In this document: positions 4,885 through 46,200 of the stretch, in pieces | How positions within the stretch are numbered: position 1 is the first letter of the stretch | How the letters are laid out: every line of letters begins with the position of its first letter | Assembly (NCBI GenBank): GCA_030141605.1 | Contig: JAQGDQ010000306.1 | Span: 62,001-126,000, forward strand | Length of the DNA: 64,000 nucleotides | Reading direction: 5' to 3' | DNA from: Tubiluchus corallicola | Taxonomy: Eukaryota; Animalia; Priapulida | Notes under the pieces: model-generated | Database searches by the model: none | What the model was told of the DNA's origin: nothing | Seen by the model: only the letters and a program-made list of their open reading frames with translations | Made by a program: the position numbers and the translations under genes

Positions 4885-5294
<410 letters not shown>

Positions 5295-9102: not shown

Positions 9103-9145
9103 GATATGTATTTTACGCTAAAACGACTATTGAACTTGACCACGG

Positions 9146-9160
9146 GTGCGTGTGTCTGTG

Positions 9161-9241
<81 letters not shown>

Positions 9242-9306
9242 AAGTGTGTGCATGCGTGCGCGCGTGTGTGTGTGTGGATGGGGGGGTGCGTGTGTGTGTG
9301 TGTGTG
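9146..9306 (+). repeat. (GT)n/(GCGT)n compound microsatellite
   Basis: Seen directly. Confidence 0.98.
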
Positions 9307-10193
9307 AGACATCATCTATAAATTTTAAGTAAATTAGGCGAAACCGAAGTTTCGATTGACTGCTTGATATATAGAGCTATTATTACATCACTTGTAACGT
9401 ATTGACAAAAACGTCTTCTGTCGCAATGTCATTTATAAAAGTGACATGTAACAAATGAGGTTTCTATGTGTCACGATGATAAGCAGTTCTGCTAAAGTTC
9501 CAAGAGAGAATGCGGAATAGTTTGTCATGTTAATTTTGTCTATACAGTCCCAAAAAGGTATATATAACTGACTTATCAGTATAGCAACTTCAGAAGTCTT
9601 CAACAGTGGTGTACTGTAGAGCTCTGTTACTAGACTACACTATAGAAGCAAGTACTACATTCAAAATGACATAACACAGTATAGAACTACAATATGTAAT
9701 GCCACTAACCCACTCAATGCACAGGTTTATCAGTAATATGAGAATCGTTTTATCTACTTTATAAAAATTATATCATTACAGGCTTTCCTTTTCCATGTTA
9801 CATTATTACTTATAAGTTGGTGTAAAGATATAACATCATGCATAACTTTCTAGATTAAAATTTCAACAAAGATGAATAAAGAGTAATTTACCGAGTAAAT
9901 TTGGAATTGTTTTTAGTGTAATTAATTTTGTACCAGTGCCCCTTATTTATCGTCGTTGCGATTCGGTTGTCGCCGTATAATATGACACATAACACCAGAG
10001 AGTAATTATAAATTTAATTACGTTAATTTAATAACCTTAGCTTTCTAGTTGAGAAATAAGGCAATGAGTTAATATAATATAGGTATATCGAAATAGGTAT
10101 ATATAATATAGGTAGTTGTTATACTCAGCTAAGAATTAAACAGCGAAATCCCTTAGCACATAGCAAACAAAAGATATTTGAGCAAAAATTAAC

Positions 10194-22500: not shown

Positions 22501-25500
22501 TGCATCATGTTATTCCACTTATTTCATATGTATGATTATTACAAGTAAATGATACATGTATGATTGTTAAAACTTTTACTATGGTTCTTAAAAGCGGTTA
22601 AAATTTTGTTTCAGGTTGAAGAGGCTGAAGCCATATTACTGCAGTTACAGCAAGTTTTAGAAGGAGGTGGTGATCAGCAGAAAGTACAAGCATTGATTAA
22701 AGATTTCTACTTGCTGGTACCACATCGTAATCAACAACCATTAGATAACTTGCACAGTCTTATCAAAAAGTTAGATTTGTGTCAGGTAACATTAAAAATC
22801 ATTTGTATTTTTTATAATACATTCAGTTTTTTCTCGTCAGGTATGCGCAACAGGTATGTTAAATGTATTACAATTTTAGATTCATGTGGCTTTGTTTGCT
22901 CATTGATCAGACATTGCCTAAGTATTTATTATGTTTGCTAAACATACATTTTCCACAAATCATGATTCGTTATATGCAAGCAACTTTTGCTTTGTTGATC
23001 TTTATCCTGCAGCAAAAATAGGAGTGTAGTAAAGTTTCTATAGGTATCAACAGAGAGAAGGCCACGAATTTTTTGCTTAACATTTGGCCTTTCGTGCTGC
23101 CAGTATTTACCTGGTTGTTTAAGTTGAAAGTATTTTCACAAAACTAAGTAGGCAATTTTCCTGTATGTAGCAGTACTGGTCACTTCTTTTTTTTGTAAGG
23201 CACCAGCATACTGCAAGTGACTGAATCGGGCAGAGGTGCCTCACTAAAATCTGTATAAGGTAAACAGCCGTGAGGGCTAATGCAACCACCCAGAGTAACT
23301 GTCGAACCCAGACAGTCCTGAACTAATCATACCAAGCATGCATACGTATCTGCTTGTCATTAACCTACCACAAATAATGATCTTACGAAAACTAACTAGA
23401 CTAAATATGGCTTGTTTTGATGCAGTTAATAAAAGATATGCTGTCCGTCAGCGAAGCTACTAACTGGATGACGCGTACCACCACACAAGCAAAATATCGA
23501 GCACTACGTTGTGTTATTCAGCATCTTGAGGATTATTCACCACAATATGAGAACGTGCGAAACTTGGTCCTTTCTTCTGATAAAAAGTTTGTGCAATTGT
23601 ATTAACATCTTTCCCGAATCAAAGTTTTCTAGTATATTTAATAAAACACTATGGCTATTATGCGAAATAAGTTTCAGAATCTTATAAACATTGACATTTT
23701 CCATTGCCTTTTTTATTCAGATCAGTTAAACGTAATTTACATAAATTCACTTAACACCATAATTTGTCTATAATTTTTATATTTGCATATACTTTAATTC
23801 TTATTTTGCTAAGAAATTTTTCTAGATCCACAATAAGCTTCATTCGTGACATGCGTAAAGTTTTTATTCATATTAAAATGGTATATTATTTAAACGATGT
23901 GACATAAAGCCCTAAAAACATAATTCATATTTATACAGGCCTTCACTTTTTTGAAACTTTTCAAACATGTGACATAATTATACACACTACTAATCGCTTT
24001 GATATGCCGGTGCTTTACTGAAATTACCTACACATTGGTTTTTGTAGAAACAGCAAGATTGCAGTGAAAAATGTTTTCGAAGTACATCGGCAATGTGAAG
24101 ACCCAGAATTCCAAAGCAGAATTGATAACAAGCGCCTGCTATTTCATGCCAGTAAGCCAGAAAATATGCTAGGCATACTTTCCAGGTATAAAATTGTGAA
24201 ATAATTGTCCATAAGACCATAATTGCTACACAGTATTAGTGATCATATTGTATGTTTGGTTATAATAAATACTATTGTTTTTCTAAAGTTTCCCACAGCA
24301 TAAAGTTCTCGTAAATATATTTTATTTTTGTTTATTCTAAAAGACTGTCTTCCCTTCATTTGCTGTTATAATAGTCATCTGCAACTTTGCGACATTTGCA
24401 ATATTTGCCAACCAACACTTTATAACTGTTTCCTTTTGATTTGTATTACTTTATTTGGAGTGAATTTAATATTTTCCAAAAACAAAAAGAAAAAATTCAA
24501 CATCTGTATTGTAAAATTGCTGTTCAGAATGGATAATTTGTCTTTTATACAGTGGATTCTGGGTTACTGTACAATAAGGAAGTTAGTGCTGTTGTGCCTT
24601 ACATTATAGTACTAAGTGTATACATTTCTGTAGGGGTTTGTTATTGCCTGGTGTCGTTGTTTCTAAGCTGGGCGGAGTTAGAACTGATATTGGAAATCTA
24701 GGATTTGGAATTTATTTTGCTGATGCCTCCAGGTAATTTGTAATTAGTTTTGTGTTGCATGGAATTTCATGAAATTTTACTACTTATAAGATCTTTTAAT
24801 ATTACTTCAATCTTATCTTTTAATTTGTTGCACTTTGAAAGCTTTTTAACATTTTTTCTTGTAGTTATTTACATTAAAAATATTCTTTAGTTTGTTGCAT
24901 ATTATAAATAGACTGTGAATTTTTAATTAGAAAGACTGACTTTAGTTAAAATTTTAATTTTTGAAACTGTTTATTTTTCAGTACAAGTTTAAAGTATTCG
25001 TCTGTTGGAAAGCACAGTCATACTAGATTTGTGCTTCTCCATGATGTGGCTCTGGGCAAGGTGAAAGAGTTTTCCACTCGGCAACTGGATCTCACTGAAC
25101 CACCCGATTCTTATGACAGCTGCCTGGGTGTAGCTAAAACTGAAGCCTTAAACTCTGATTTTACTGTATGTAAAGTGGTATTTATTATTAATTTGAAATA
25201 ACATAATTTACATCATTTGGCTGTCATCTTTCAGAACTGATATAGGCAACCTTTATTTTCATTTTCTCTCTAGGAAGATGAATATGCAATTTACAGCACA
25301 TCGCAGCAGAAAATGCGTTATTTAGTGGAGTTTTCCTTGCCTGAAGACCAAATAGCATCTTCACAACCAGAAAACATAGCAGAAGAAAGTATTCCAGCAA
25401 TTCCTGGTGTTGAACCAAAGAGTGAAGGTATTTTGCTGTATTTGAACCAAAAGCTATTTTACAGGAAAATTAATCCCCGTGATTAATTTTACCTAGACTT

Positions 25501-28500
25501 GTTAAAATGCAGCTGTCAGTAAATTCCGTGATTAAGTTTCATGTGATACAATGACTACAAATGAGTTTAAATATTTCGAAGATCGGGGTTCAGTTTTCAA
25601 TCGTTTTTCTTCCACCCAAAAAATTAAATAATGCTTAGCCCTCCTAAACCAAAGACTTTGTGAGGTTTATTATTTACAATCATGCGTCATTTGTGTATGA
25701 TTGGGCAAGGAACAACTATTTGTTGAAACATTGCTGCAGCTACTACACTGTTCTGTATGAAATTTTCAAAGACAAGTGCACAGCATTTTTGTGAACTTAA
25801 CTATATTCATATTTCAAGCAGTGTCTTTCTTTTTTGCTGTTGTCCTCTGATTGGTTTCCATGCACTTTAATTAGAAAACTCTGACTGTTTTAGGATGCCA
25901 AACTTATCAATGTTTCAGACAAAAATTCTTTTTTTCAGTGACCGAGATTGAGATAGATGATGTGCTTGATGTAGAGAATCCAATGGATAGTGTCAAAGTT
26001 GGCTTAGTAACGAATAACGATCAATTTATTCCACTGTGTGCTGTGCATATTCGAGCTAAATTGATTGACCTTGCCTCACAGGTTTGTCTATGAGCATGTA
26101 AGCGAGCTATAGTAATGGTACTTATGCACAACATGTTCATCAGTACCTATGCATTGTAATAAAGTGAAATAATGATATTGCCATCTGAATGTAGTCAAAG
26201 TTTGATCTACTTTTCGACTTAAACCTTTGACCTGATCCTAGATACAAACTTCTCAGTGGATTTAATATTTACTTAAATTTAAATAACAGTTTACTTAAAC
26301 ACTAAGATGCTAGTTAATGTAAGTGAGGCTTGTTTTTTACAACCTGGATAGGTAACCACCAGGAAAGCTGTTTCTGGGAAGTTTCAGTCCCCATACTGCC
26401 CCTTGATACCCCTTTGAGGATATCGTAAGCATGCAAACAAGGCTAAAACACTTCTGCCCATTCAGTGTCTCACCTTAGAGGAAAATAAAATACAATATAC
26501 AAAAACAGTGCCATATTTAAAAAATGTAGAATGCGTCATAGTTAATTAAACCACTTTGCAATCACAAAACAAGTTTATAAATTCACAAAGTGGCACACAA
26601 ATTTTCCACTTTACAGTATAACAGTGATTTTCTGTTTCTTTTGCTAGGTTGTTGTTTTCCAAGAGTACAAAAATGACAGCAAGTATCCAATAGAGGCGAA
26701 ATTTGTTTTTCCGCTTGTTGAGTTAGCAGCTGTTGTTGGATTTGAGGCTTTTATCAATGATAAGCACATTGTGGGAGAAGTGCAAGAGAAAGAAAAGGCC
26801 CACAAAGAGTATAGAGAAGCAGTTGCAGAGGGCCATGGTGCTTACCTCTTTGATCAAGAAACACCGGTGAGAACAATTTATTAGTTAACATCTCATCTTC
26901 CTGATAGTAACTGTTCATTTTAGGATCATTGGTAAATTCCGAAACAAGGATAAAGCATTTAACATGCCATTCACAGTACAAGAGAACATTGTAATAACAC
27001 TATAAAGATTTATTTTACATTCAATACATCAACCTTCTTCAAATGATAAGAACAAATTATATTAAAGACAGTTTGAAATGTTAAAACATTCTAAGTATCA
27101 GTACAGTACAACAATAGATATTGTTAATTTTTTATGTAAGCTCATTTACAAAAGGTTGAATTATAGCACAGCATAGAATGACAAAATGTAAGTTTTTAAC
27201 AGAATAAAAAAGGTATAACATACAATGATAAGTACTGTTAAACTATTCCAATGTGCCTGAAGAAAATGAGTTTAAAATTATGTTTGGAAATTAAATAAAC
27301 CACATGAGATAAAATTGTTCTTGAATCTCTCTGTTCTGCATTTAGGTAACGGGTATTTCAGATAGTGGTGAGCTCTATATCTATAAGTATGGGCATCTGA
27401 CAGTAGAGTATGGATTATATTATTAGGACTTTGAATTGATTATTTTACAAGAATTTTTGTGACAGTTAAATAAAGGTTGAAGATTTGCCAAAATTAGAGC
27501 ATTTGCATAGTGTTGATTTGTAACAAATTATTTTCAATTAGCATTTTTCAACAGTTTCTAACAAATCAATGAGATTTTGGAAGAGAGATGAGTACCATAC
27601 CTGACAAGCATATTCAACAACTGATCCAATGGTGGTGCAGTAACACCATTAAGAGATGCCCCATTTCTTTATAATTAGTAAATAATTAGTACAAAAAGTA
27701 AATTGTTTACTGGGTTTAGCATAAATTAAATGGACAAGGGTGTTCCATGTTAAAAGTTTAGCTACTGTACACCCAAAAGTTTAGCTGAATCAACTCTTTT
27801 TACCATCAAATGAGAGACATTAGTAGGGAAAATATCAGGAAGCCTAGCTATGACAGTCACAATCATTTTGATGAATTTAGAATATATTGAAATTTAGATT
27901 ATTAGCATTTGCCCATTGTAATGGCAATGTAATTACTTGATTAGCTGTTGTTTCAATTTTGAGATAGTCAGTAGTTAGTTCTTTGATGATGGTGGAAGAG
28001 GAAATAAGATATTTAATAAAATATTCGGAACTTGCATATATTCAAATTTTGTTAACAAAATGTTATGACCAGTGTGTTCAACAGCTTTTCGTAAATCTAA
28101 TAAAAAAACTGTAGAGGTACCACCTCTAGTGTCAACAGCTTTATGCAGTTGATACATTAAATAACTCAGAGTATGTATAGTGGAACCACCACAGATAAAT
28201 TTATATTGAGAATAACTTATTTGGTTACCAATTACCTGCCATAACCAATCAGAAACAAACTTTCCAAAATTTTGCAAAGTACCGGTGTATAGAGAAATAT
28301 GTCCCAGATCTTTTTCAAGTGATATAATGTCATTAGATTTTGGAATAAGTATAACATCTATGATGTAAAATGGCTGTAAATTAATTGTAAAACTGTTGAT
28401 TAATTAAAAAAATCTTGTTTAAGTTTTCACACAAGTGAATTAGTGGCTTACAAGGCTAAATTTTACCATCCCCACACTCAAGAAATTAGTTCGTGAAGCA

Positions 28501-31500
28501 GATTGGGATTAAGGTTAGGGTTAGAGTTATTGTATTTAAATTGTGTGTGAATTGTAAACTCCTTCCACTTACAATACACTGATACAGTTTTTGCTGTTAA
28601 AACTTCCGTTTCTGTTCATACTGTTTGTTTTCAGGATGTGTTTACTGTTAGCATTGGAAACTTGCCGCCTAAATGCCGAGCTGTGATCAAGATAACATAT
28701 ATTGCTGAACTTGGATTTGAAGCTGACCAGATAAGTTTTAGGATACCTGCCAACATAGCACCATGGCAGAGAAAAAATGCTCTTTCAACTGAAACACAGG
28801 TATTAAAATAATCCTACTGATATCGTCTGTTTCTGCTATGTGTAATTTCTTTTTATAACTATCTCATCATCTTGTCATTTGATTTTATTGTAGGGTGTGA
28901 CTGCTACAGTGGCTTCTTTCTTGGCGTGCCCAATCTCAATAATCGTAGGAATAGAAATGCCTTTTCTCATACAGAAATTAACATGCCCAACTCACATGAT
29001 TGAACATAAGGTATTTTTGTTGTTTTTAACATAATAAACTACATTATAAAATACTAGTGTTTATATTATTGCATGAAATTCTAAAAACTGTTATTGTAAA
29101 TTGCATTGCTAATAGCTGGTCATTAATTTTGAGTCATTTGCAAAGTTTGGCAGCTGCTTTATAATCTGTTCTTTTTTTCACATTTATTGACAGTTTGTGA
29201 CTCTCGTTCCATGTATGATACATCAACAAGTGATGCCTTAAACTGATATATATGTTGTTTTCATGTCGAAACACTTCTTCAATGACAAAATGTTCACTTC
29301 AGCAAACAATAACATAATGACGAGTTAAAGGTTTATACTTTACAGCACGCTTGGCCTATAAAGATGTATACGACATACTTTGATAGAATTGTACTTATAG
29401 ACGTGCAGTAGTAGCTTTAGGGTTGGCAACTGCTTTTGTCTGCCATCATCCCATTTACATTTGATTTGTGCTGTCCAAAGATCAGTAAGGCATAAATAGT
29501 TGAATATCTTCAGTTGAAATACAAAATAAATGCCATAGCACTAGCAGAGCTGCAGCCAACTCATAAATTATTTCATTTTTTGCCAAGGTTTAATAAATTT
29601 TCCACAGAATACAGCTAAAATACATCCTCGCACATTTACATTGTTTCCTATGAAAGGATTGTTTTGTTTGCTACATTTCGGTCAATACCATATTTTATTG
29701 GTCCAGATTATTAATTTACCATATACCATATACAGATCAGATGTCATTCTTACTGTCATATTTGTTACTGTTTTTTTACTTACATAGCGATCTGACACCA
29801 AGGCAGTAGTGTCAACAGCTGACAATAATGGCCTTGTTGATGGTTTTCATTTATTGATTTCTATTGCGGAGATACATATGCCTAGAATGTGGGTGGAAAA
29901 TTATCCCAATGAAGACCATCAGGTAATGAGCTGATTTCTTTGCAGAAAAAAATGTCTTTTGCTTAATAGCGTGCTCACAGTAATCTTTTCTTCAGGCAGT
30001 TTATTGAAAAACATGCTTAACTTGTTTCTATTTGCTTTTTTTGCTAAATTCACTTGGCATTTTTAGTTGGGAAATCATTGTGAAACTGTCAAAATAGCAT
30101 ATCTTTGCTTTTTCAAAATTTATATACAATTTAACCAGCTTTGTATGATCTTAACTTTTATGCCCAACATGCCATTTAACCTAAGCTACTACTTAGAACA
30201 ACAGTTCAAGCTTTCTGTCACAATCCATAACAATTTTTGTGGAACTGATTTTTTCCTGTAGAACCTAAATCCTAATAACACAATCAAAACAATGGCTGTT
30301 GTTGGTAACAACAGGTAGCATGTTGTTGTTATCAACAATAGGCATTGCTTTTGTTGCATAAGCTTTGTGAAAAGCATATTCTATTTTTTACCAATCACTT
30401 GCGTCATTTATCACCTCTGAATTTAAATTTTAAAATTATTTCTCTGTTTCTTTGTTGTTTTTATTGGAAAACTGCATTTTCATAAATTTATGCCTAAGCT
30501 GGTGTTTCCTTTTCAGGCGTGCATGTTAACATTTTTTCCGGAATTCGATGCTGAAGAAATTTCAACAGAGATACTGTTTTTGTTAGATATGTCTAACTCT
30601 ATGAAAGGTCAAGCAGCAACGGCTGCTAAGAAAGCTCTTCTTCTTGCTCTGCATCACCTACCCGACAATGTTATGTTTAACGTCGTAAAATTTGGCACTG
30701 GTAGGCAATTCTCGTCTTTTTATATAACCTGTTGAATAAAAGCATTTCATAAAAAAGTGATTGGGAAAACTCAGCACTTTTGTATTTTCTTGCAGGTTTT
30801 TCGGAATTGTTTCCAACTAGTGTTGAAAAATGTAAGGATACACTAAAGTTAGCCATACATTTTGTGCAAAATGCTTCTCCAGATCTCGGAAATTCTGAGC
30901 TGCTACGTCCATTGTTGTCATACTTTTTGCTGCATCCTGAAGATGGCTCACTCAGAAATGTGTTTCTAATTACTGATGGCTATGTGAACAACGAGCCTGC
31001 GGTTAGAAATTTAGTGAGAGAGAATTCGACACACACGCGATTGTTTGTTTTAGGCGTTGGGTATGAATACACTTTTTAACTTAATTGTTCTGTTTCTTTT
31101 GTTTTTGGCACAATATAAATCTGTACCTTCTTTTGTTTTCTGAGCTTTAGTAATAACTGCAATTATTTTTCATTGAAATAAGAGTATGAAATTTGTTGTT
31201 ATATATACTTATATCACGTCAGTCCTGGCTATGTTTGCTGCAAATATTAGATTCTTTGTATATTCAGTTCACAGGAACTTCAAATGAATTCAAAACTTCA
31301 AGTAAACACAATTTGTAGCGCTTTGTACATAAATGTTTGTCACTTGTAGCTCTACCACAAACAGACATTTTTGTCTGTCATTGGCACATGTTGGACGTGG
31401 ATGGTACGAGTACTTCGACTTGAAAACAAAGTCTCGATGGGAACATAAGATTATATCTTTCTATGACAAGGCAAAACAACCCAGCTTATCATCTGTGCGT

Positions 31501-34500
31501 GTGGACTGGCAGGTGTTTGATGATTTTGCACCACCTCCACAGCAGGCACCCCAACAGATACTTTCACTTTTCAATGGAAGTAGGCAAATAGTGTATGGAT
31601 TCGTAAACAATTGTAACCTGGTAAGAAAAAAAATTGAAAATAACGTTAATTAATTCTTTTTTCATTGCTTTATATTATTTCTGCCTGGAAGTTACCCGGC
31701 TTCAATTAGCTTATACTTTATACCATATAAACTGATTAGAGTTGGTGAGATGTACCTAAAGATCATTTGGAAAAAAATTGGCATGTATTGTGTGTTTTAG
31801 TACATGTTGTTTTGCCTATTGTATAACTATAAAAGCCTCTTTTTTTAAGGTTTAAAATGCATTTAAAGAAATTACTTAAAAAACCATGTGCTACTCGTAG
31901 TCATTGTTTTATTGGTGCATCTTAAATTGCCTTCTCATTAGCTATTTTGGTAAGATTTGTATTTTTCGTAATATTTTATTTGATCAGATTTCAATAACAT
32001 AATGCTCCAGACAAGTATCTTGCAGCACTCACTGCAGTGTAACTTGTAGTATATATCTGATATTTTTAAATACAGGCTACACTGAAAGCCGAGATTGGCG
32101 GCAAAGAAGTGTCAACAGTTGTTTCGACAACTGATCTAGCACAGACTACAGACAAGGTAGGCACATGAGGCTCAATTTTTTTTTAATGTTTTCGTTGCAT
32201 TTTTATTCTGTAATAGTGTAAAGCTGGAGTGATTAATAAAAATGCAAAATCTATTAAAAAATTTTGGAAACTGTAGGTACTTCACCAGCTGACAGCTCGT
32301 GCATTAATCCGAGACTGGGAGGAAGGTAGCTTACATGGAGATAGCATTCAGCATCAGGTAGGTACAGTCTCTGTATTTGCTTTATACTGTTATGTGGATA
32401 ACACTATTCTTTTACTAAAAGCAGGAAGCAACACTTATAAGTGATGAAATCAGACAAATCTGATGAAAAATTGGCAGTCATTTTCTGTGATATTTAGAGC
32501 TAAACTGAACGATCTCTCAATCCGTAACTCATTTTGTTCTATTGTCTAAGTTAAGATTTTGTTACCAATCTTAACATGAAGTGCACCTAGCAATAGTGCA
32601 GCATTGAACTTCAAATATTTAGCAGAAATTTTATATCCACATCACATGCATGTTTGTGACTGTTAAATTGAAACAGTGTTACTGTGCACCTCTCACAAAG
32701 AAATACAAAAACCCAGCAATTTTTAACTTTGCATTTTCTAAATCACTTTCTCTTTGCAATTTTATCAAAAAATGTAAATATTCCATCTGCAGCAAATGTT
32801 GTACATTGTAATAAATTTTTATTTAATAGGCGTTAAAGCAAAAACAACAGTCTTACATTATCGACTTGAGCAAAAAGTACTCTGTTGTCACCCAACTTAC
32901 AAGTTTTATTGCTGTAGAAGAACGAAAACCAGTAAGTATTGATGATTTCAGTGCAAACACTTTAGCAAGCCTATTTAATGCGTTATTTGTAAAGGATTAG
33001 ATTTCAGATCATCAGTAGTAGATAAAACTTGCAAAACAATGTAACAATGTTCATTTTACAATTGAAGTTTAGCCATTACATTGTTAGCAATTTTTGGTGT
33101 TTGTAAAAAGTGGTAAATATAAATGCCCATTCTTAAAGAAAATTTTTAAGTCAGTTAACTTTTTCTTGAAGTCATTCAATTTTTCAGGAAACATTCTGGA
33201 AAAGATTTCGCCTTTTGCTTCTGTGATTTGAATAGAAAATGTTTTATGGTATGATTTCATGCCTTCTGCAGTGCTAACAGTCAAGTCCATCCCTCTTTTA
33301 TGATCTGCACATATTTAATAAGTGAGGTCCTGTCAGTCAAGTGTCATGTTTGCTACATGCAGGCCATTATGTTGCTTGTTTTTAAGTAAGCTATTATATT
33401 GTTTTGTCTTTTGTTTTAGGATGATACAGCTCTAATTTCAACACCGAGCATAGAAGAAATTGTGTCAAGTGTCGATGTTGACGTGCTGCAGCTGGATAGT
33501 AAAGTGCATTACAGTTAGTATTATTTAATAAACTGAAAGTGGCTGCAAGAATAATGAGCTTTCTGTATTTTTAGTGCAAGTTCGAGAAATTGAAATCATG
33601 TTCATTTATCATCATTAGAGGCAAGTGGTTCAATTACAGCACAGCATTAAATTACAAAATATAAAATTTTTTGAAAGAATGAGCAAGGTAGAACATACAG
33701 CAATAAGCACTATTACACTGTTACAAGATACGTGAAGAAAATAAATTAAAATGATCTAACCTTATGTTTGGAAATTAAATAAATCATGTGAGATAAAACT
33801 GGTCTTGAACCTGTCTGTTCTGCAACTAGGTTAGGGGTATTTCATATGGTGGCGAGTACTACATCTATAAGTATGGGCATCTGGCAATAGAATGTGCATT
33901 ATATTATTAGGATTTTGAATTGATAAGAACAACTTATTGCAGGAATTTTTATGATGGTTTAGTAAAGGTTGAAAGTTGGCCAAAATTAGAACATTTACAT
34001 AATTTCCACTGAGCATTTTTGAATAGTTTCAAACAATTCGAAGAGATTTTGGAAGAGAGATGGGTGTTATACCTGAGAAACGTATTCAACAACTGGCCTA
34101 AATACACTAAGTGCAGTACATTTTTATATCATTAGGAGATCTCCCAGATCTGTTCATTAGTCGCAAAAGATAAATTGTTTACTGGCTTTAACATAAATTG
34201 AATGGACTTGGCTGTTCCATGTTAATTCTTTAGCTATTTGTGCACCTAAATCTTTAACTGAATCAATTCTTTTTACTCTTCAAATTACCTTCAAATCTTT
34301 CCCATTCTGTTGTGTAGAAATTTTTATATTAACCCTTTTCCACCAGAAATGTACCGCTTCTGTTGATAACTAAATTGTATTTTTAACTACTTTGCTAGAT
34401 AGGTGGGTGTATGCTGTATTAAGTTTGCACATGAAAAATTGTAATAAGAAAATCGCCACAAAGAATGTTTTCAGTGAATTATGTTACTTTCCTTAATTAG

Positions 34501-37191
34501 GTATCTAAAGCTAATTAAGTAAATTTTTTTCCACAACAATGGTAAATTTCAAAGTCAGTTAGTGTGCATCATAAAAATATTTTGCATTTGTATACTTTGT
34601 CAATTTTGTTTTTATTTATTTATTTTCCAAAATGTGCTTCTTCAAGCGCATCTCTGCAGAAACCTAAATACTACTAAAAATGTTTTTTGTGGAATCCTTT
34701 TTTGGCAAATTTTGTAGTTCCTTGCAGAGTAAAGTCAACAAAGGAAACCATTTTGCTGAATCAGGTCAACAAATTCTCACCTTATACTTTTGAAATTTGT
34801 AATTTTTCCAAAAAGCAATGGAAATTTATTTAGTTTTTCGTATTATTTTCACCACTCTGTTTCCAACAATAAATAGGGCCACTTGCTACAATTGCCCAGA
34901 AAGGGCAACAAAGTTTTTTAGATCGTCTGAGGATCAATTAGTCCATGTTATTTTAGTAAAATTCCTCTTCCAGTAAAGTTAAACATCTGACGAGAATTAA
35001 GACAAGTCGTTTGATATATTGCGATACGCATATGGCAGTAAAATTGTTGAGAAAGTAGTGAAAACCAGTAATAAATAATATGTAGAGATAAGCGATGGCA
35101 GATGTTTTACGTACTACTGATTTTCTAGTAGGAAATGTGTTTATATGGCATTTAGACAGCAAGAAGCTTCAGTTTCCAAAAAATAGCAAGTGATCTTTCT
35201 TGTACAACATAATCACTGTATTAGTCGTCAAGCCATTTGTGTGACTATGCATTCTACAAACTCAGATCAAACTCCTGTTAGTGAATATTACGAAATTATT
35301 TTGGCAAATATATAAAAATGGAGTCTGTATTACATGTCTGGGTTGTATTTAGACTTCAAAATGATCACTTCTTTTAAAATTATGAAAAATCTTGTAATAC
35401 AGATACTGTTCATTTGATTATTGTCAACAAGAAGGGGAGATTTTAAAGTATTAACTACTATAGACATTTTTGTTTGCTTTGAAGCAGAGAAGCAAAGGGC
35501 AAAGGACTCATTGACATGCTACGACATCGATGACATGGAGTTGGAAGAAGAGAGATATATAGAATGTGATGAGTAGGCCATTCAAAATACATTATTTGTG
35601 CAAAATTTACCAATAAAATGTTTAAACACTTAATATTTGTCATTATATACAAATTAGTGTTGCAACATATTAATTTTTTAGCGATTCAGTTGCACGTAAA
35701 ATGTTGTGTCTTGTACATTGTTATGTTGAGAGTAAGTGAAAAATATCTGTGACCACATATTTGGAGATTCACAAAACTAAAGTACAATTGGTAGTCAGGA
35801 AAATACACACACACTTCCGAATTTTGACCCGTAAGGTTTTGTTCTGGTTTTATACATTAATTTGTTAGGGTGGGTGGATAGACAACATCTTTCATTAGGT
35901 GCAAAAATAAATTAGTCTACTGTATCAGGCATGTTGTAACTGTTTGAAGGCAGCACTATGAATTCTGTTATGATTTTGGTGTTTTGATGTAATTTTGTAA
36001 TAACTTTTAATATAGTTAAATATACACAATGTTTTTAAATTTTAAGTTTAATAGTTTTTTGCTGTCAGCTCAATACTTATGAGGCGAGTAGCTTTACAGA
36101 ACAAGCAGAAGTTATCAAGCAAGAAGTTTTAGAATAGTATTAGTACTTTGTAAGGCACTTAATTTATATTGTTACAAATTTGTAATAGAATATGCTCAAA
36201 TCAACCCAGCACATCCAAAAAATAAGCTAGTAAAAACAGTCACATTTAACAGGAAAGTACTGAAAAACTACATACCTTTAAGTTACAGGCTTTAAAACAT
36301 TATCAATTAAATCGTTTTTGAAAGAATGTTGCTTCTGCATTGAGTATCGTTATACACAGTTGTAGGTGAAATGTTTGAATAAGTTTGATGATTTCGTAAA
36401 TGGTTGATTAGGGATGATTGCTAGCGAGAACCAAAGTTGAAAGCATTGTGTTTCAAAAGATAATTGTAGAAGTGCAATTTACTAAAGATTAAATGTTGTT
36501 ACAATCTCATAAAACGTATTTTTAATACTTCTACTATTTTTCTAACTCAGATGTGAGGAAGTGTCTTCAGATTATTCGCCAACATCGCCCAGTTTTGCAT
36601 ATGCTTCACCTGCATCAAGATCAACGTCGAGGTCACGAAGCTTACGAAGGTCAGGAAGTCGTGACAAAGCTATGGATTTTATTGAAATCTCACTGTGAGT
36701 AACAATTTTGTTGCTTAGTATGTGCTCTGGACTGAAAACTAGTTGTTGAAAGTATCGCATAGTTTTCAAGTGTACTGTAGTTAAATGGTAAAGGCTAGCA
36801 AGGTGCCGTATTTTCTATTAAAAACAATGCTGCAAATTTTGCTACATTTAGCTCAAATTTGTACATTTGCTAATTTTGCTAAACTTTGCTACATTTAAAA
36901 CTTTTGCCAGCATAATGAACAAAAATAGTGAGAAACATTTATTTCATGTTCATGCACTTTACGAAAAAAACCTGCATTACCTTCCCGAGTAGGTTGATGC
37001 TTAAGGAAAACACTTCTTCTTGGTACATTGCATCTCCCTACATGCTTTACTCTGGCTGAGTATTGCCTTTATAAGTAGTTTCATTACTGACCTTTCAAAC
37101 ACTTTCACACTTTCGTCTGCAAAACATTATAGTATGACAGCAGAGTTGGGCACCAAAAAACTACTCAGGCATTTACAATTGAACATCTTAA

Positions 37192-37238
<47 letters not shown>

Positions 37239-40200
37239 CGTCATCATCATTATTATCACCATCGATTTCCAACACCAGGAACAACAACAAAATAACATTT
37301 TAATAGATTTGGTTTCTATTCTTAAAAATATTAATAATACAAAGATTACAGATAAATCGTGGATGTTGTAACAAAAGAATTATGTTTTATTTGCTAGTAA
37401 ACAGATATTTTGCACCCCATTACAGGTTCCTTTTTCAGTGTAAGCACAACAATATGCACCACCTTGAAATGCATAATTACTGAATTACCCTAACAAAATG
37501 CAGAAAATACAGAAACATTATTAGCACCCTATAATCGGCTGCAAAATATCTGTTTATTAGCAAATGAACCATAATTCTTTTATTATAACATACATGATTC
37601 CGTCTGTAACCTTTGTTTATTAACAAAAACAATAACAACAACATCTGCAATGGTTGCATTATAACTGGTTTTTTTTGTATCAGCAGTGACGGTTTTTGTT
37701 ATCATGCGACATCAGACAAAGGTGTTCCGGCAAGCAATAGTGATGAAGACATGGGGTTTGATCTATTTAATGGAGACACAAATGTTCGTCTGAAAGGTAA
37801 ATCCTTCTCACCCAAGAAAGTTACTAAAGCAAATGTTAAGCGTGGTGTGCAACAAATGACATATGTTGGGAGGTCCTTGGCATCTAAGTCTTCTGAACAG
37901 CCAGACGAACCAAAAGAAATGGAAGAGAGCAGTGATGATGATGATATGGGATTTGGTCTTTTTGATGATGGACCACCAGTTTTACGCCCACATCATGGAC
38001 CACCAGTTTCACGCCCACATCAGCAACGAGTTACCAAAGTTGTTTCAGAAGTAAAAAGTTTTGAGGAAATGGTGAAAGAAGCACATGATAAAAAAGGAAA
38101 ACAGAAACAGTTACAAGCGAAAGGTCTCTACAGTTACAGATACGGATTACCTTCTAAAGCATCTGTTCAAAGTCTATGCCTTCCTACTTCTTCTTCTAAA
38201 GCAACCCATGGTGCACAAGCTCTACCTCCAAAATTTGGAGGATCTCCCGGACTCGGAGGACTATTTTCTTCTCAACCTGCTCCTGCAAGAGCTGAAACTG
38301 CTGTACCTCCACCTCATGAGAGTTTGCATTCTGGCTATGCTGTTTCCTCTACAAGAGCTCCAGGTGCTGCTTCAGATATAAGAGGATTTTCATTTCATCC
38401 TGTAGGGTTCACTGGGTTAATGGCTGAAAGGCCTTTCACTCAGCAGCATTCTTTTGTTTCATCCCAAATGCCAATTGTTAATTCTAGCACAGAGGTACCT
38501 TTTGCTGCAGCAATGCAGTACGTATCATCATCTCTACCCCCGCCATGTCGTCAAGCCACACGTAGTGCTGATAGAGTGCCTCCGCCTCCACCTCCACCGT
38601 GTCGTCAGCCCCCACCAAGTGCTGAAAGAGTGCCTTTGCCTCCACTCCCACTACATGCCAGCCAATCTGTCGAAATTCTCCTTCAATCTGGCGGAAGTGA
38701 CATTCTTGATCAACAGACAGCAGTTAAAGCAGGTAATTTTTGCATGTTAGTACCTTGCTGTTTTCACAGCTTTTAACATTATTTTTTTATGAACTCTAGA
38801 TACTATGTTCTTGTTATTCTTCTAATACAGGTTTTATAATCTAATATTGTGTTTGCATGAAACAAAAACCTCTTTTAGATTTTTTGGATAAATGATTCCC
38901 CACAACAACTATAGTCCATGAGGTAGACCCAGAATTTGTGAATTGGTACCGTCTGGGGTGGCAAATTGTAGTGCTGTTTACTTGAAAGGTAAATGTCTGT
39001 AGCTGAAGAAACTTTGAAGCCAAGTTCTGAGTGGTAGCTTAGTGGTAGTAATCATCATCCCAGCTTCGAAGATATGACCATGACTGGGACCAAAAATTGT
39101 GGATAAGAAAAATATAAACGACAATATTTTTTTGAAACACTGGCTCAGTTATTGGAAATTGAAACTCATACCTGCACAACATTGATAATCACAATGATTA
39201 TTAAAATGACATTTTGCAAAATTTCATTAGAAGTTCAGGGTATTGTTGACAGAAATTATCCTATATGGTCCAATTGCAGGCAGGTTTTTTTTACTTACAT
39301 ATTTGATGTATGTTTTTTTTACTTTTGCAGACCTTAATTATACGCATTCACACAAGGAATAATAATTGTTGAACTTTAAATGACACCAAGTCATTAAAGG
39401 TCCTATTCTCTCTGTAAGTAGGATGCTTAAGTTTCCTTGGTGCCATCCCATAGGGCAGGGGTGTGCAAATTATTTGACTAGCCGGTACCACATTAAACTT
39501 TCAAGCAGTTTCTGCGGGCTGCATGCAGTTTGGTAAAGGAGCCAAAAACAGTAGCACCTAATAACGACTTTTTTGCATTTGATCTTCGCACATCATTACT
39601 AATACACTTAAGAAAACTATTTTAGAAGTTATTCAAATTTACATTAAAAACCATAGATTTCAAGTTTCAAGTTAAATAGTGGTAATTTTATTAAAATGCA
39701 TATTAGTATAATGTGTAACTTAGTCTGTGCAGTACAGTGCATATTAATCTGTTTTGAAACACTCGATGTTCTTCAATCCTGTTTTTCTTATCCATGTTTC
39801 TGATCTATAAAAGAACACTACACCTGATGAAACGATGAAACAGCCACTGATTGAAGTGTGCACTACTTTGTGCACTAAGCAGAAACTAAAATCTGGGAAT
39901 CCCCAATATCAGGGGTGACCACACTTTTTCAGCTTGCTGGCTACTTACAAATTGATCTGCCCAGTTGTCTTCTTGGTCATAGTAAGTAGATCATTTTGAC
40001 CTGGTTAGATCATTTTGACCTGGTTATTTTATAATTTTATTTATAATTTATTTTGTAAAATAACCAAGTCAAAATGATCTACCTGCTATGACCAAGAAGA
40101 CGACTGGGCCAATCAACAAAGCAACCATTTCAAATTTGACTTCAAAGTTTTTTTATCTAGCAGACCTACCATTCAAGAAAACAGCATTACAATTTGCTAT

Positions 40201-43200
40201 ATCAGACGGTACAAAATCATGTTGCAGCTGCGATATCTTAATATCTTTAACAAAATCTTAATATGATGCTGTTAAACATCTTGGTCATCCTACTCTATTT
40301 TTTCAAAAGAGGCTTAAATTTTTTGCTGTGCAACTCAGTGTAGACATCTGATTTTGCATTACACTCAAACTTCTCCATGTTACCCACTTTGAGATTCAAA
40401 AAAAATTGGCGTTATGCAAGTTTGGCATTATAATGAGGTGCATTAATACTTGCATGCCTGTGCTAATATAGATATTTTGTTTTGCCAAAATTTTGGATGT
40501 TAAGAGATGTTGGCATTTGAAGCTAGAACGAGGTTTGACTATGTTATTCAAAAACGTTTATAGTATACACTATAAAATTTTAAACTCTGCCTATTTTTTG
40601 CATATAACATGTTAACTAACTTGTAACTGAAAAAAATCACAGTATTGCCTTAGCATTTGCTTTATATTTAGAAATTTAGTTTTTAAACGAATCTTTGAAT
40701 CTTGAGTGGGCAAAGCCCCACCACAAAGGCGTGGTAACAGGGTACCCAACATGTTTATCAATTTCTTTTCACACGACATATGCTCATATTTTTCATTTGT
40801 GTGATAGTGTATTAAAGTACTTATTCCTGGCATTAAAATTTATTGACTTATATATTTATGAATTCATTTATATAATTAGATCATCATTTTTAAGTTTGTT
40901 CTCTAGCGCATTTATTTCTCTTAACAACTTCTTATATTTAGTCTGTTTTAGTCTCGGATTAAAGGCTTATAATTTTATTGAGATGTGTGTGCGTGTTTTT
41001 TTTTTGTTAAGGAAGCTCTAGGAGAATGAGAAAACTACCTTTGGCGAAATGTTCAGGTCAGCAAAATTAATAATTGGTGAGAACTTTGTTCCCTCCATGG
41101 CACACGGAATAGAGATAATTGTGAACATGATCCACAATGTTTACCCATGCTAAGTTCTTCCTGTTTTATAAACTGCAACTTTTAGTCTTGTAAATGGTTA
41201 AATAAAAAAGCGACGATGACCCACTGTTTGGATAAGTGGCTTCCTTGTCCCATTCTTAGAGTAGCCCAGATATTTCAAACTGGCACAGATTTATCTCTTT
41301 ACCTGTTGTGCAAAAATCCTTGGTAAATGGGCAGTTATGTACATAGAGTTCACTGAGTGTCAAGTAAGTCATGGTTATTTTTTGCTTAGTAGGGATTCTG
41401 TGACCTTTTGTTAGTTTAGTAAGATCATGTGAGTCATGTTAATTCTTTAAAGACTATGTGCATCTTAAGTCTGTAAGAACCTCATGAACATGCCTGAGCA
41501 TACTTGGCAGTTTCTAGTGGCCTCACAGTTCTAGGTTCTAAAGGATCATATTGTTCATGACAGATCCCTTGGCAGTGGATAATTACCTGACGGTACTCTT
41601 AGTGCATGTTTACTTGTTCTAGTTGTGTAATGAATGTAATTGACATGTGTAGGGTAGAGTTTTAAAGCTGAAGTGTGGTGAAATAGTCAGTAGTCTTGCA
41701 TGCTACTGGATGAGACAAGTCCTTTGTTATTGGTGATACAAGCAAACTTTTATAAACCAATATTGATTTTTAGTCAGATTTTTGCCACTGATGATGGAGT
41801 TAAGCAAACAAATACTCCTTAATAAGTTATAGCTTTCTTGTCTTAAAGCTGAAAGATGAGTTTCTAAGCAATTATCGGCCTATGAATCCACCATAACCTG
41901 TATTTGTAATCGTTGGTTTATGCAGATCTTTTCCAGATTTGTTTTTATGCAGAATTTTTCCATTTTGTTTTACAACTTGTGCTCATTGTGTTTTTGTCAT
42001 TTAGGGTTATCTTAATTGAAAGTAATACTATTTGTTTTAGGGAAAATTTCATCAAAGAAAAAGGAAAAACAAAGACGAGTAGTTCCTCACTCACTAAGAG
42101 AGAGTAAGTCTATAATATCATTTGTGAATAAGCATTTGTTTTATACATTTCACTAGAAAGGGTATTTGTAACATTCAGGTGATGAAATTCTTTAAGCCGA
42201 ACTGGGTCTCGAACTTGGGCGGGGCAACATAGGTCGAGATGGAGTGCCGAATGAGTCTGTGACCATTAATGTTAAAGAGCAGCAATATTTGTTTAAGTTT
42301 TAAGGCAGTTACAAGCGCAGGAGGCGTCGGTCCTTCCAGTATGGGCCAATGGTGATACAGTGTGAACGGAAACAGTGATCACAACAAAGTATAAATAAGT
42401 AAACTGTTTGCCATGGGTTTAACATTTTAATTTGCATAATCAGTCAAAAACGATAAACACAAAAACTCAAAACTTACACAAGCACAGCAGGGTACCCTCC
42501 ATTTAATATCAGTCTGCTAGTGTTTTACTTAGGCGCGATCCCTGTCAAGTTCTGGAGTCCATATACTAAGCTGGCTGGAATCACTTTGCTAACAACTGGG
42601 CTCGTTGGCAACGACAACTACACCAATGTTCCACTCGGTTGACTGGCGAGACTACAGTACAATGACAGACCACCAGGATGCTTCTGACGACCGCTTCTTC
42701 TAATGAGTTAGGTACCAAGCTTTTAGAATTTGTAGAAGTCTGCTCGTGCCGTTTTGGTTGAAAACTGTACCATCATGGAAGCATACTGATCTTAGAAGAA
42801 TGTCTTTCGTTAAATACCAGACATATGGTTTGCATCTACTCAACTGACTACCCAAGATAATGACTGGTAGTGTGAACAATTTGCATAGCTAATTGCAAGT
42901 CATCAAGTTGATTGCAAAAGTATCCAAAGCAACGTCTTGTCAGCCAACGCCCCGACAAAGACAAAATCAGTAGGCCTTTTAGCTGTGTCGGCCATTTAGC
43001 AATTATATCAGTAACCTCGTGAAAAACGGGCACTTCTCAATCACACCTGTCATGACCCAGTTAATCATGCAGTCACGGCAGTACTATAGGTATGACATTG
43101 TCAAGCCTAAATTTGGTCCAAAAGTTAAACTGTAACATTTCTTTGTTGAACTCACAATAGATGGTGCCACCAGTTTATAATGTTTACCTAATTCAGTTAA

Positions 43201-46200
43201 TTAGTTAGTAATAATAGGTTCAATACAATACATTTAGATATAGCTAATAGTGCTTTCAAAAGCCTCGTAAATGTGTTATTACTGTTAAATGGCTATTCGT
43301 TTTAATCTGTGGAATAATACCGTGACAGTATTAATACTGTCAAATCTTCAGATAAAGTTTTTACTCGATTATACTTGGATATAAAAATAATCAAATAAAT
43401 AGAAACTATTAAATTTTAAATTTTAAGTGATGTAAGTAACTTACACAAAATATTTAGTTATTTAAGCACTTTTATGATTACACCAGTCATCAGAAATTGT
43501 TGCATTATTATGTAAAAATGTGGTAAAATCATTTTTTGCAGATTTACATCAAAATTCACCATTTCATCTTACTTTTGTTGTGGTATTTTCTCATGTGCTT
43601 TTTCCTCTTACTTATAGGAATATCGCCATTGTTTTATAATGGAAAAAGTTATCCAAAATATACAGTTAAAAGTTGACTGACGACGGTGAAATCTAAAAAT
43701 CACTACTTTTAGTCTATGTGCAGTCACTCTTTCCATTTGGGATCGATTATTCAGCAATTATGTTTTTTGTCATGACTTTATCATATTGAAATTAAATTTT
43801 AAATAATTAGCTTTTTCTAGTTTTTAGAATGGTTTTTCCAAGGAATTTCTGTCAGAAGCAGAATAGACTGATCTTTGTACCTTTAATTGAATTATTGCTC
43901 GAGTTATGTTCTAATGCAGCACACGAAAAATGAATTTCTCAGGATAATAAATTTGATTTGAAAGGTGGTAGCTTTGGACGCAGTGAAGATTCAATGGCAG
44001 TTCATGATACGAGTGAAATGACTAGATATGCACCTGAAATGGCAATGAGACGTCAAGCCTCAAGATCAGTGAGAAAAGGTAACACTTTACACTAGTAATA
44101 CAGAATGCTTGCCAAATCCTATATTACAGATTGCTAACTAAATCCTATCAAAATATTTGTTTATTTTACTTTGCACCAAGTTCGTATTTCCAACAAACCA
44201 AAATTTACTTAAGGTTTATTTAAGATCTTGCATTACTGAGATTATGCCCTGACACTTTTTCTTAATAGCGCCAAAAGTGTGCAAACTATTGTCCCAAGAT
44301 GCACAGAGAAGAACCCTGTGTTGGGACTGGGGAACGATGGTTTCATGTTAAGGGGTCACAGGCAGTGGGCATCAGTTACTTTTTTCAACTGAACAGCATC
44401 TCCTTCTAAGTCATTAAATTGAAAACTTTTTAACAGTTATTTAGGTATTGTTGGGTAGATGTCCACCTGGTTAGCTGAGCACCTCTGGTTTCAAAGAGCC
44501 GGTATTCCTTAAGGGCCCAAGGTCGAATACAAGTTAAGAATAGTACACAGTCAGTTTCATTACCAACAGTTGTTAATATCTAAATCTGTGACAAAACTTT
44601 CCAGTTTTGACTTGCCGTAATATTCGGTATGTGCTGCTTAATAGACTTACTTTGGGACCGAAGTGTTTTGACCCAATTAACCAACTGAACCTATTAACCT
44701 ATGGATGTAGTATTACTGGTATAAAGTATGTGTCATCAGCTTAATATGCACTGCAAAGGTTTTTAATGAATTTCAAAAACGAAGTAATGCCTAAATTCCT
44801 TTGTACAGTTAAAGTTCCCTTTTCTCAAACTGACGAGAGCAAGTTTGATGAAAAAACTGCAAAAATGGCTGTTTATGGATGTTTTTTCGTTTTATTACTA
44901 CAAATGACTGGGATTCGAAAGAACCATCAATGAGAAGACCTTTCGTTTTGATATATGGATTGCCAAGAATCGTGCAGTCATTAGAGATTTAGTCCCTAAA
45001 ACCAGGAATAAAATTTCTAACTGGTTGGGAAAATTTTGATGCCTCTAAATGTCTCCATTTCCTGATCTGCTAGCTTTGTTAAAATGCATATTTTGCCATT
45101 GTTAGTCTTGCTGGTCCTACAAAAAGCTTAATTATTTTATTTTTTTAGCATTTAATCTCTTCGTTAATATAATTTATTTGAACATCTACATTTTTGCAAC
45201 AATTTTTCTTTGATAGATAGAAAAATTTGCTTAACTTTATTTGGAATTTGCTTTTCGTAGAGGTGGTTACATTAAGTGTGATACTTATGGCTCAGGTAAG
45301 TCAATTAAGTTTTGTTGCATGCAGTTTTCCTCGTTTAACTCTCACCAACACTTAATCATCATTATACAACAGTGTTTTTACAAATTATGTATTAACAATA
45401 TTCAAAAGTTTAGCTATGGGCTTTAAAACATTAACACCTTCTATCAACCAATTTCTACGGTTTATTAAAAATTGCAGGAGCATCATAGTCATCCACTTTT
45501 TGCCATCTAAAAAAGCTTGAGTGTGCCCAAATTTTGTCAGCTAATTTTTGAGACCAAGCAATTATTTTTATTTGCTTAATGATGCACGCACCACTAATTG
45601 CCAGCAAAAATTTCATTTAGTAAAAAAGTTTGTAAAAAGTCTGCAGCAGTTTATGACAATTTTAGTCGGCATTTGTCTTAAAAAAATAGTAATTTTTTGT
45701 ATAGTTACCTTTATAACAAAAAGGCAAGGCATTTCTTAATACTCGTAGCAAATTTGTAGCTTTTGTATAAACATCAGGTACTGAAAACTTAGCTAAGCTT
45801 ACTGAGTTTGGTAAGATAGCCCAGTTTATAATAGGCATGAATAACTGATTATGTGCTAAGGGTAGGCAATTATTCATTAAGGTGGTGATTATCATGATCG
45901 TGACTACATCACTGATTCAGGAGAAGGCACTGTGCATATAGTGGAAGTAGACGCCCAAGGAAAAGATGGTGAGGAAGAACCAATGGCTGAAAGCTTAGAG
46001 GGGATTAAGTTTCCACTTTGTTCAACCAGTACTAGTGATTATAGAGTGATAAATCTAACACCTGTGTTGCCACAACTCCTTGCTTTGCAAAAGAATGTAA
46101 GTTAAACTATTTATGCTCTCATGAATTTGCTACATAAAAGAGATGAGCTTCCTGTATCTTTCTGTGTTTTACTAAGGCAGTTCATTTTGGTAAATGTGAC

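Follow-up and report, generated by a model that had tools for sequence, protein, structure and literature searches.

Stalk-tail copies in the linker of a priapulid vault PARP (PARP4) and their possible role as bait

A 64-kb stretch of genomic DNA from Tubiluchus corallicola (contig JAQGDQ010000306.1, 64,000 nucleotides, termed the window in this work) was found to carry one gene identified as PARP4 (vault PARP) on the + strand at positions 11928-52894. The domains of the predicted protein are arranged in the order BRCT, PARP regulatory, PARP catalytic, VIT, vWA, linker, and MVP-interaction domain. Two near-exact copies of the C-terminal tail of the ribosomal stalk proteins P1, P2, and P0 were identified in the linker, and stalk-like tails as well as copies of other host proteins were identified in the linkers of homologous proteins. 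We suggest that the stalk-tail copies act as displayed bait for proteins that dock on the stalk, where the favoured prey are foreign ribosome-attacking toxins or other pathogen factors. A rough probability of 0.45, slightly below even, is given to this reading. The function of the vault and of PARP4 has been open for decades, and the near-exact stalk-tail copies give a concrete handle on it.

A sequence-only reading of the same DNA had proposed a modular array of host-protein mimics in this linker and had drawn on two precedents, both of which agree with the literature. The largest exon of PARP4 in primates and bats (exon 30 in human) is disordered and is the only one with a signal of positive selection, and the region it encodes has been proposed to touch pathogen factors (Daugherty et al., 2014, PMC4038475). 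The VIT-vWA protein ITIH4 acts as a bait: after cleavage it retains the protease in a complex that depends on the vWA (Pihl et al., 2021, PMC7793589). It has also been reported that 14-3-3, actin, and ubiquitin-related domains are appended after the VIT-vWA of PARP4-like (clade-5) proteins from amoebae, Capsaspora, a choanoflagellate, lancelet, and sea urchin (Perina et al., 2014, PMC4245714). The stalk tail is a docking site of ricin and Shiga toxins. Translational GTPases and Gcn2 use the ribosomal stalk as well (PMC11624264, PMC6421407). No report of stalk tails, SNARE motifs, or calmodulin in PARP4, nor any reading of PARP4 as a decoy or tripwire, was found in the literature that was covered, which does not include subscription journals.

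Results

Two stalk tails in the largest linker exon

Both stalk tails are encoded by exon C, the largest exon of the linker, and their coordinates are shown in Table 1. Tail 2 has a core that is identical to the C-terminus of P1/P2/P0. This tail together with its acidic hinge matches the Pfam family Ribosomal_60s (PF00428) with 29.8 bits (cut-off 28.1, E 8.7e-7) at positions 61-88 of 88, and it is aligned with the C-terminal peptides of P1, P2, and P0 chains among the PDB sequences. The stalk motif was obtained in none of 5000 shuffles of the 526-residue linker. The two P-stalk motifs named in the sequence-only reading are therefore well founded. The DNA of the two tails is alike only across the ~36 nt that encode the motif, and the synonymous sites differ.

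The P1/P2 dimerisation domain has no match in exon C, as the similarity to Ribosomal_60s is restricted to positions 61-88 and both tails are internal to an exon of 349 codons. Judged by sequence, the two segments are tail copies and not a member of the P1/P2 family.

Stalk-like tails in the linkers of PARP4 homologues

The PARP4 homologues were collected with the VIT exon as the query, which gave 105 proteins at E <=1e-8 among 226 candidates; those that are named are nearly all PARP4 or PARP4-like. An anchor block after the vWA was identified in 73 of the 105 homologues, and 64 of these have a linker of at least 100 residues. The loose pattern, an acidic run followed by [ML]-[GSA]-[FL]-x-L-F, gave nine matches in seven of the 64 linkers (30,639 aa), and the strict pattern gave four matches in four proteins. 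The N-terminal parts of the same proteins (72,400 aa) contain no stalk-like tail. The observed counts were never reached in 1000 linker shuffles, where the mean was 0.16 loose matches (maximum 2) and 0.002 strict matches.

The tails are carried by proteins of Mercenaria (P0014, XP_053398285.1), Batillaria (P0029 and P0032, two models), Magallana (P0080, K1PUC2), Saccostrea cucullata (P0082, XP_062607148.1), and Mytilus galloprovincialis (P0103 and P0104, one locus). The motif variants in these molluscs are MGFSLF, MGFCLF, LGFNLF, MAFALF, MSFNLF, and LGLCLF, and they always lie within acidic runs. The motif is the sole conserved block when eight tail regions are aligned. An alignment between the oyster linker of P0082 and the window (tblastn, E 0.002) spans tail 2 and the adjoining GP.VRP.HQQ block, and this points to common descent of that part of the linker.

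The best identity of the window protein is 52%, to a Mytilus protein. A quick tree places it on a long branch outside a mollusc clade of 19 rows, where its position relative to the echinoderm and cnidarian rows is not resolved. When the homologues were screened with regular expressions for ~20 further host peptides of the tail or switch type (among them the tails of histones and tubulin, EEVD, and the switch peptides of GTPases), no match was obtained. The RNA polymerase II C-terminal domain heptad YSPTSPS is present in 0 of the 105 homologues.

Copies of other host proteins in homologous linkers

Homologues were searched for foreign families after the vWA in three Pfam scans. One scan covered 25 proteins that had been chosen mostly for unexpected families in the precomputed Pfam column, and the other two covered four proteins each; a foreign family was found in 19/25, 2/4, and 4/4 proteins. 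The scan of 25 proteins identified ubiquitin in nine and an N-terminal piece of actin in seven. It also identified EF-hands, Snf7, synaptobrevin, HSP70, 14-3-3, Roc, and a PTB domain and kinase, together with a zinc finger that may be the result of fusion with a neighbouring gene.

The linker of Mytilus P0104 contains calmodulin residues 11-146 (E about 1e-51) and the C-terminal SNARE motif of SNAP-25 (~residues 142-206, E 6.6e-14), both identified by PDB sequence search. The SNARE motif lies between Snf7 and two stalk-like tails, and the protein ends with the MVP-interaction domain. Saccostrea P0082 contains actin residues 4-62 (E about 3e-18, PDB), which adjoin a synaptobrevin piece and a stalk-like tail. 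All nine actin pieces are limited to profile positions 2-67 of 410, and GRPRHQGVMVGMGQKD is preserved in six of seven actin fragments from a brittle star, a jellyfish, and bivalves, with variable flanks. In all four homologues whose ubiquitin copy retains LRLRGG, this stretch is followed by proline (P0011, P0014, P0053, and P0055). A Gly-Pro junction resists the deubiquitinases of the cell itself, and this proline would keep the ubiquitin copy in line.

One homologue, P0134 (1943 aa, on a contig of 5997 nt), has BRCT-PARP-VIT-vWA followed by the last third of 14-3-3, a substrate-binding piece of HSP70, and an MVP-interaction-like end. This mosaic is encoded in one uninterrupted frame, and such mosaics are therefore not artefacts of annotation or of gene models. 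Module content varies among paralogues and species. Seven alternative models of one Mytilus galloprovincialis locus on a single contig of 198,960 nt (P0104, P0107, and five others) vary in their linker modules, a hint that bait cassettes are alternatively spliced; the phase-neutral exons B and E1 of the window agree with this.

On these sequence matches, PARP4 linkers collect copies, often fragments, of abundant and conserved host proteins between the vWA and the vault anchor, and the copies look like fragments kept for display. The modular array of host-protein mimics that had been proposed from the window is supported in the homologous linkers; in the window, its heptad is a single one, and its phenylalanine-glycine (FG) and arginine-serine (RS) baits have no support.

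Identity of the PARP4 gene

The identification of the gene as PARP4 in the sequence-only reading is confirmed by Pfam, by homologue search, and by tblastn. Among the open reading frames (ORFs) of the exons, PARP was matched on three (E 6.2e-7, 9e-7), and VIT (E 1.2e-22), VWA_3 (E 1.8e-9 and 1.8e-7), and PARP_reg (E 2.9e-5) were matched as well. BRCT is weak by Pfam on the split exons (E 0.0013-0.1, under the cut-off) and clear by tblastn against the BRCT region of the homologues (down to 5.8e-13). The exon blocks found by tblastn with PARP4 homologues cover 11922-32997, and nothing was found downstream at E < 1e-3. The start methionine was placed at 11928 by alignment to the lemur and Mytilus PARP4 proteins. 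FHAS, GIYFA, and DEYAIY are visible and aligned with the same two proteins, and the DMSNS motif of the vWA (LLDMSNSMKG) is aligned with the motif of the homologues. We take the first three to be the H-Y-E catalytic positions and DMSNS (DxSxS) to be the metal ion-dependent adhesion site. No homologue was found by word search for the exon after the vWA domain (31360-31629).

A profile built from the C-termini of 15 homologues matches 47604-47954 (E 3.9e-7) and 52736-52891 (E 3.4e-7), and the gene therefore extends to the stop codon at 52892-52894. The C-terminal MVP-interaction domain is predicted to bind MVP. No Pfam family was matched on three exons of this domain; PF26156 and PF26166 are precomputed for many PARP4 homologues. 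Of the region 33420-46096 that was described in the sequence-only reading, only the last exon holds the beginning of this domain, which continues to 52894.

Gene model of the linker

The exon predictions combine open frames with splice phase, codon usage, and homology. The codon-usage log-odds were trained on 883 conserved codons, and intron windows served as the null. The window has a G+C content of about 30-40%. The region 33420-46096 corresponds to the linker and the first exon of the vault-binding domain, and both of its ends are exact exon borders (AG / GT). A chain of 10 exons from 32830 to the stop at 52894 has AG/GT borders throughout and forms a single in-frame ORF of 735 residues (736 positions with the stop). 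The linker has ~526 aa in this model, less than the 600 or so that had been estimated. Its description as a low-complexity linker that follows the vWA agrees with its position in the chain and with the predicted disorder.

The codon scores of exon A, exon F, and the exon at 33420-33498 exceed 99% of the null. Exon A and the exon at 33420-33498 together supply the phase that is required by exon C. Exon B is also open in a second frame with a higher codon score (0.32 vs 0.17); the frame with YSPTSPS was taken because it alone can be spliced in phase to exon C. Both exon B and exon E1 are phase-neutral, and each can therefore be skipped without a frame break. Candidate exon E2 was rejected as a member of the chain, as its phases are incompatible and just a weak bridging exon of 47 nt turned up. 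Exon F joins the exon at 47685 in phase to give QKNDGSWEF, which agrees with the family profile.

Exon C has a codon log-odds of 0.33, and the maximum of the null for intron windows of 349 codons is -0.03. AlphaFold without an alignment gave a mean predicted local distance difference test score of 47.4 for this exon, with 229 of 349 residues below 50 and one helix at exon residues 110-148. This prediction is consistent with a linker that is largely disordered. A PDB sequence search gave no match for exon A or exon F.

Table 1. Predicted features of the PARP4 gene in the window, with positions counted from the first nucleotide of the window.
Feature	Position	Strand	Evidence and remarks
Conserved PARP4 body	11928..32931	+	~20 exon blocks, BRCT through the block after the vWA; LINE in one intron
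First exon of the 10-exon chain	32830-32931	+	AG/GT borders, in frame
First linker exon, DDTALISTPSIEEIVSSVDVDVLQLD	33420..33498	+	Phase 0 start, ends 1 nt into a codon; log-odds 0.40 vs -0.41 and -0.11 in the other frames
Exon A, acidic segment	35485..35572	+	Weak donor GTAGGC; codon log-odds 0.41 against 99% null of 0.21
YDIDDMELEEE, in exon A	35520-35552	+	String match
Exon B, 144 nt, phase-neutral	36551..36694	+	One exact YSPTSPS, two degenerate heptads, RS-rich tract; possible cassette
YSPTSPS, in exon B	36573-36593	+	String match
RSRSLRRSGSR, in exon B	36630-36662	+	String match
Exon C, 1049 nt, 349 codons, largest linker exon	37684..38732	+	Within an open frame of 388 codons; mostly disordered
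Stalk-tail copy 1, SDEDMGFDLF	37739..37768	+	DMGFDLF at 37748-37768
Stalk-tail copy 2, SSDDDDMGFGLFDD	37928..37969	+	DMGFGLF at 37943-37963
27-nt x 2.0 in-frame repeat (GPPV.RPH.)	37968..38022	+	Directly after tail 2; also aligns to oyster P0082
KFGG	38231-38242	+	String match
GGLFSS	38255-38272	+	String match
GFSF	38384-38395	+	String match
54-nt x 2.2 in-frame repeat, proline-rich PPPCRQ...RVP units	38532..38651	+	Repeat scan; contains the poly-Pro run
PPPPP	38579-38593	+	String match
Candidate cassette exon E1, 63 nt, basic patch KISSKKKEKQRR	42041..42103	+	Good AG/GT borders, compatible phase; log-odds 0.20, borderline
SSKKKEKQRR, in E1	42049-42078	+	String match
Candidate exon E2, coding-like, unplaced	43943..44078	+	Phase 0 start, fits neither exon C nor E1; log-odds 0.24
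Exon F, end of linker and start of MVP-interaction domain (...LLALQKN)	45882..46096	+	Log-odds 0.35; borders
Remaining exons of the MVP-interaction domain	47685-47784, 47982-48190, 52736-52894 (stop 52892-52894)	+	Profile and borders; outside 33420-46096

Other strings in the linker

All ten strings that had been listed for the linker are present on the + strand at or near the places given for them. The heptad YSPTSPS is an exact one, for which the composition of the linker predicts 1.4e-5 occurrences, and none of its matches in the PDB is significant (E 0.3 and 6.7). An RNA polymerase II C-terminal domain is a tandem array of YSPTSPS, and the linker has one exact heptad and two degenerate ones; membership of that class was rejected. 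The proposed mimic of this domain thus stands as an exact heptad beyond compositional chance, and it is a single copy that is absent from the homologues.

Two other proposed baits were not borne out. The linker contains two FG dipeptides where 1.2 are expected, a count reached in 1674 of 5000 shuffles, and nucleoporin mimicry, for which many FG would be required, was rejected. Likewise, 11 SR/RS dipeptides were counted against 7.8 expected (reached in 707 of 5000 shuffles), and mimicry of SR proteins or RS domains was rejected, given one RS-rich tract of ~17 residues and no RRM match in Pfam. The polyproline repeats, also noted before, do exceed chance, with four PPPP against 0.03 expected, and lie within the 54-nt repeat.

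Other features of the window

A retroelement of the LINE (long interspersed nuclear element) type lies within an intron of PARP4 at 16692-19965 and, like the gene, on the + strand. Pfam matched its reverse transcriptase (RVT_1, E 4.8e-17, 18451-19014) and, under the cut-off, an endonuclease-like part (E 1.8e-5, 16956-17609). In run X1, genomic contigs cross the exon-intron borders without GT-AG joints. The summed contig depth of the same run is 260-2950 in the intron stretches 39000-40340, 44340-45000, and 48340-52340, compared with ~1-40 elsewhere, with many non-canonical joints; these stretches are probably high-copy repeats. A tandem repeat of 256 nt x 1.8 is located at 46442-46910, and a GT-rich array is located at 52102-52338 immediately before the last exon.

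A WAVE/SCAR (WASF) gene at 56709-60086 (-) is convergent with PARP4. Its ORF at 59610-60086 matches WASF1 residues 131-177 (E 5.6e-11), the ORF at 57613-58407 is proline-rich with a WH2-like stretch, and 56709-56930 encodes an acidic tail, where the last two were identified by eye. Ordinary simple repeats (+) are found at 5089-5333, which would give ~50 Val/Leu/Cys codons if read, and at 9034-9330, a TG/CA microsatellite that reads (CV)n.

Discussion

Displayed bait and its alternatives

We suggest that the two tails are displayed as bait in the disordered linker. They would bind the partners of the stalk tail and would capture proteins that normally dock on the ribosome, with foreign ribosome-attacking toxins or other pathogen factors as the favoured prey. 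Capture would take place beside the metal site of the vWA, as in the bait mechanism of ITIH4. The captured protein would undergo ADP-ribosylation, be retained in the vault by means of the C-terminal MVP-interaction domain, or both. The modules would be exchanged over evolutionary time, tracking the targets of pathogens. Most of the copied proteins are classic substrates or cofactors of microbial toxins. The capture of foreign factors is favoured over the recruitment of host proteins because most of the copied proteins are such substrates or cofactors, because the fragments are unfit for the job of the parent protein, and because module content changes; actin 4-62 or half a SNARE motif cannot do the job of its parent.

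A wider reading is offered tentatively, with the odds somewhat against it. PARP4 and the vault may form an ancient eukaryotic trap for toxins and effectors, in which the linker presents swappable baits made of host targets, namely stalk tails in the window and the actin loop, SNARE motifs, calmodulin, ubiquitin, and pieces of 14-3-3 and HSP70 in other species. A foreign enzyme that seized or cleaved a bait would be retained by the vWA site, modified by ADP-ribosylation, and confined to the vault.

The main rival reading, which we consider rather unlikely but by no means far-fetched, is the recruitment of host factors. The tails would bring translational GTPases (eEF2, eEF1A, and others) or Gcn2 to PARP4 or the vault for ADP-ribosylation, storage, or the regulation of translation, and the other modules of the relatives would be adaptors that load ordinary clients into vaults. 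These GTPases and Gcn2 are among the known partners of the stalk tail (PMC11624264, PMC6421407), and calmodulin, ubiquitin, Snf7, and the substrate-binding piece of HSP70 are client-binding modules, some of them near complete, that lie N-terminal to the MVP-interaction domain. The interpretation of appended domains as functional links (Perina et al., 2014, PMC4245714) also agrees with recruitment. However, an adaptor function is improbable for pieces such as actin 4-62, half of a SNARE motif, or the final third of 14-3-3, and the differences in modules among paralogues and species fit an arms race better than a fixed housekeeping role. The positive selection on the vertebrate counterpart (PMC4038475) speaks in the same direction.

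An improbable alternative is that the tails are a convergent acidic-hydrophobic motif specific to this family, which would, for example, occupy the metal site of the vWA in the same protein as an internal pseudo-ligand or make contact with MVP or another part of the vault. The metal sites of vWA domains bind acidic ligands, and the motif is degenerate in molluscs and always lies in acidic runs. Against convergence, the match in the window spans 27 profile positions that include the acidic hinge and lies above the Pfam cut-off, tail 2 agrees with the C-terminal peptide of P1/P2, and unmistakable copies of other host proteins are found in the same linkers.

The tails are also given little chance of being neutral passengers, that is, functionless debris of P1/P2 exon shuffling or of a retrocopy in a tolerant and fast-evolving disordered linker. 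A low-complexity linker with young in-frame tandem repeats and without detectable close homologues is of the kind that tolerates insertions. However, the window has two copies whose DNA differs at synonymous sites with the peptide core kept, tails are found again in five mollusc species, where they are confined to the linkers, and the motif is the sole conserved column block in linkers that are otherwise unalignable. It is very improbable that exon C or the small exons near it lie outside the PARP4 mRNA, as might be argued from the weak donor of exon A, the two open frames of exon B, and the fact that the exons are predicted, since exon C lies in an open frame of 388 codons in DNA of about 34% G+C with codon usage far above the intron null, no conflict of splice phase arises between 32830 and the stop at 52894, and the linker has homology to that of oyster PARP4.

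Several points weigh against the bait reading. The tails are internal and real stalk tails are C-terminal. The loose pattern was devised after the first matches, and the seven tail-bearing models represent five species, all of them molluscs, as two pairs are alternative models of single loci. No stalk-like tail was found in the vertebrate, cnidarian, and echinoderm linkers that were examined, so that the tails are found only in molluscs and in the window. The "array" of the window consists of two tails and one heptad, and no piece of actin, ubiquitin, or similar proteins was identified in its introns; tblastn of the 105 proteins at E < 1 gave no match downstream of 33000 other than the tails and the MVP domain. 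Exons A, B, and E1 are predicted models. A search of 1.84 billion representative proteins with exon C gave no match at E <=0.001, and a word search among longer proteins gave none either; close orthologues are therefore missing. The calmodulin, ubiquitin, and Snf7 copies are near-complete domains that could serve as adaptors. The link between the copied proteins and toxins is drawn from general background, and abundant hub proteins are ordinary interaction partners as well. Perina et al. (2014, PMC4245714) interpreted the domains appended to PARP4-like proteins as functional connections to signalling and the cytoskeleton.

If the bait reading is true, it would join the selection on primate exon 30, the bait mechanism of ITIH4, and the scattered odd domains of PARP4-like proteins, and it would suggest a novel type of innate defence in animals. 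If the wider reading of an ancient trap is true, vaults would gain their long-sought function, and the trap would be an animal counterpart of the integrated decoys of plants. If host proteins are recruited instead, the vault PARP would be linked to the control of translation.

Comparison with known systems

The tails of the window share the acidic hinge and the DDMGFGLFD core with the P1/P2/P0 tail (PF00428). They are unlike it in being internal, in being part of a PARP, and in having no dimerisation domain.

ITIH4 has a VIT-vWA with a metal-site motif and an exposed susceptible region, and the PARP4 of the window shares only this architecture. We take the susceptible region of ITIH4 to lie after its vWA domain. 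ITIH4 is extracellular and has no enzyme domain, unlike PARP4.

The integrated decoys of plant NLR proteins and the tripwires of mammalian NLRP1 and CARD8 are copies of pathogen targets in a defence protein, with variable modules and rapid evolution. The PARP4 linker resembles them in logic only. Pfam scans of the exon ORFs and of the scanned homologues found no NB-ARC/NACHT or LRR, and PARP4 is a member of neither family. The output proposed for PARP4 would be ADP-ribosylation or sequestration in the vault and not the assembly of a resistosome or an inflammasome.

The PARP4 of the window has the same domain order as vertebrate PARP4, and in both the linker contains the largest exon, for which disorder is predicted. 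However, the vertebrate linkers of our set have neither a stalk tail nor a copy of a host protein, and exon C has no detectable similarity to them. The PARP4-like proteins of Perina et al. (2014) carry extra host domains after the VIT-vWA, as do proteins of molluscs, a jellyfish, and a brittle star in this work. Stalk tails, SNARE motifs, calmodulin, and the fragment nature of the actin pieces are not mentioned in the available part of PMC4245714. The stalk tails are a new module on a family that is already known for odd appended domains.

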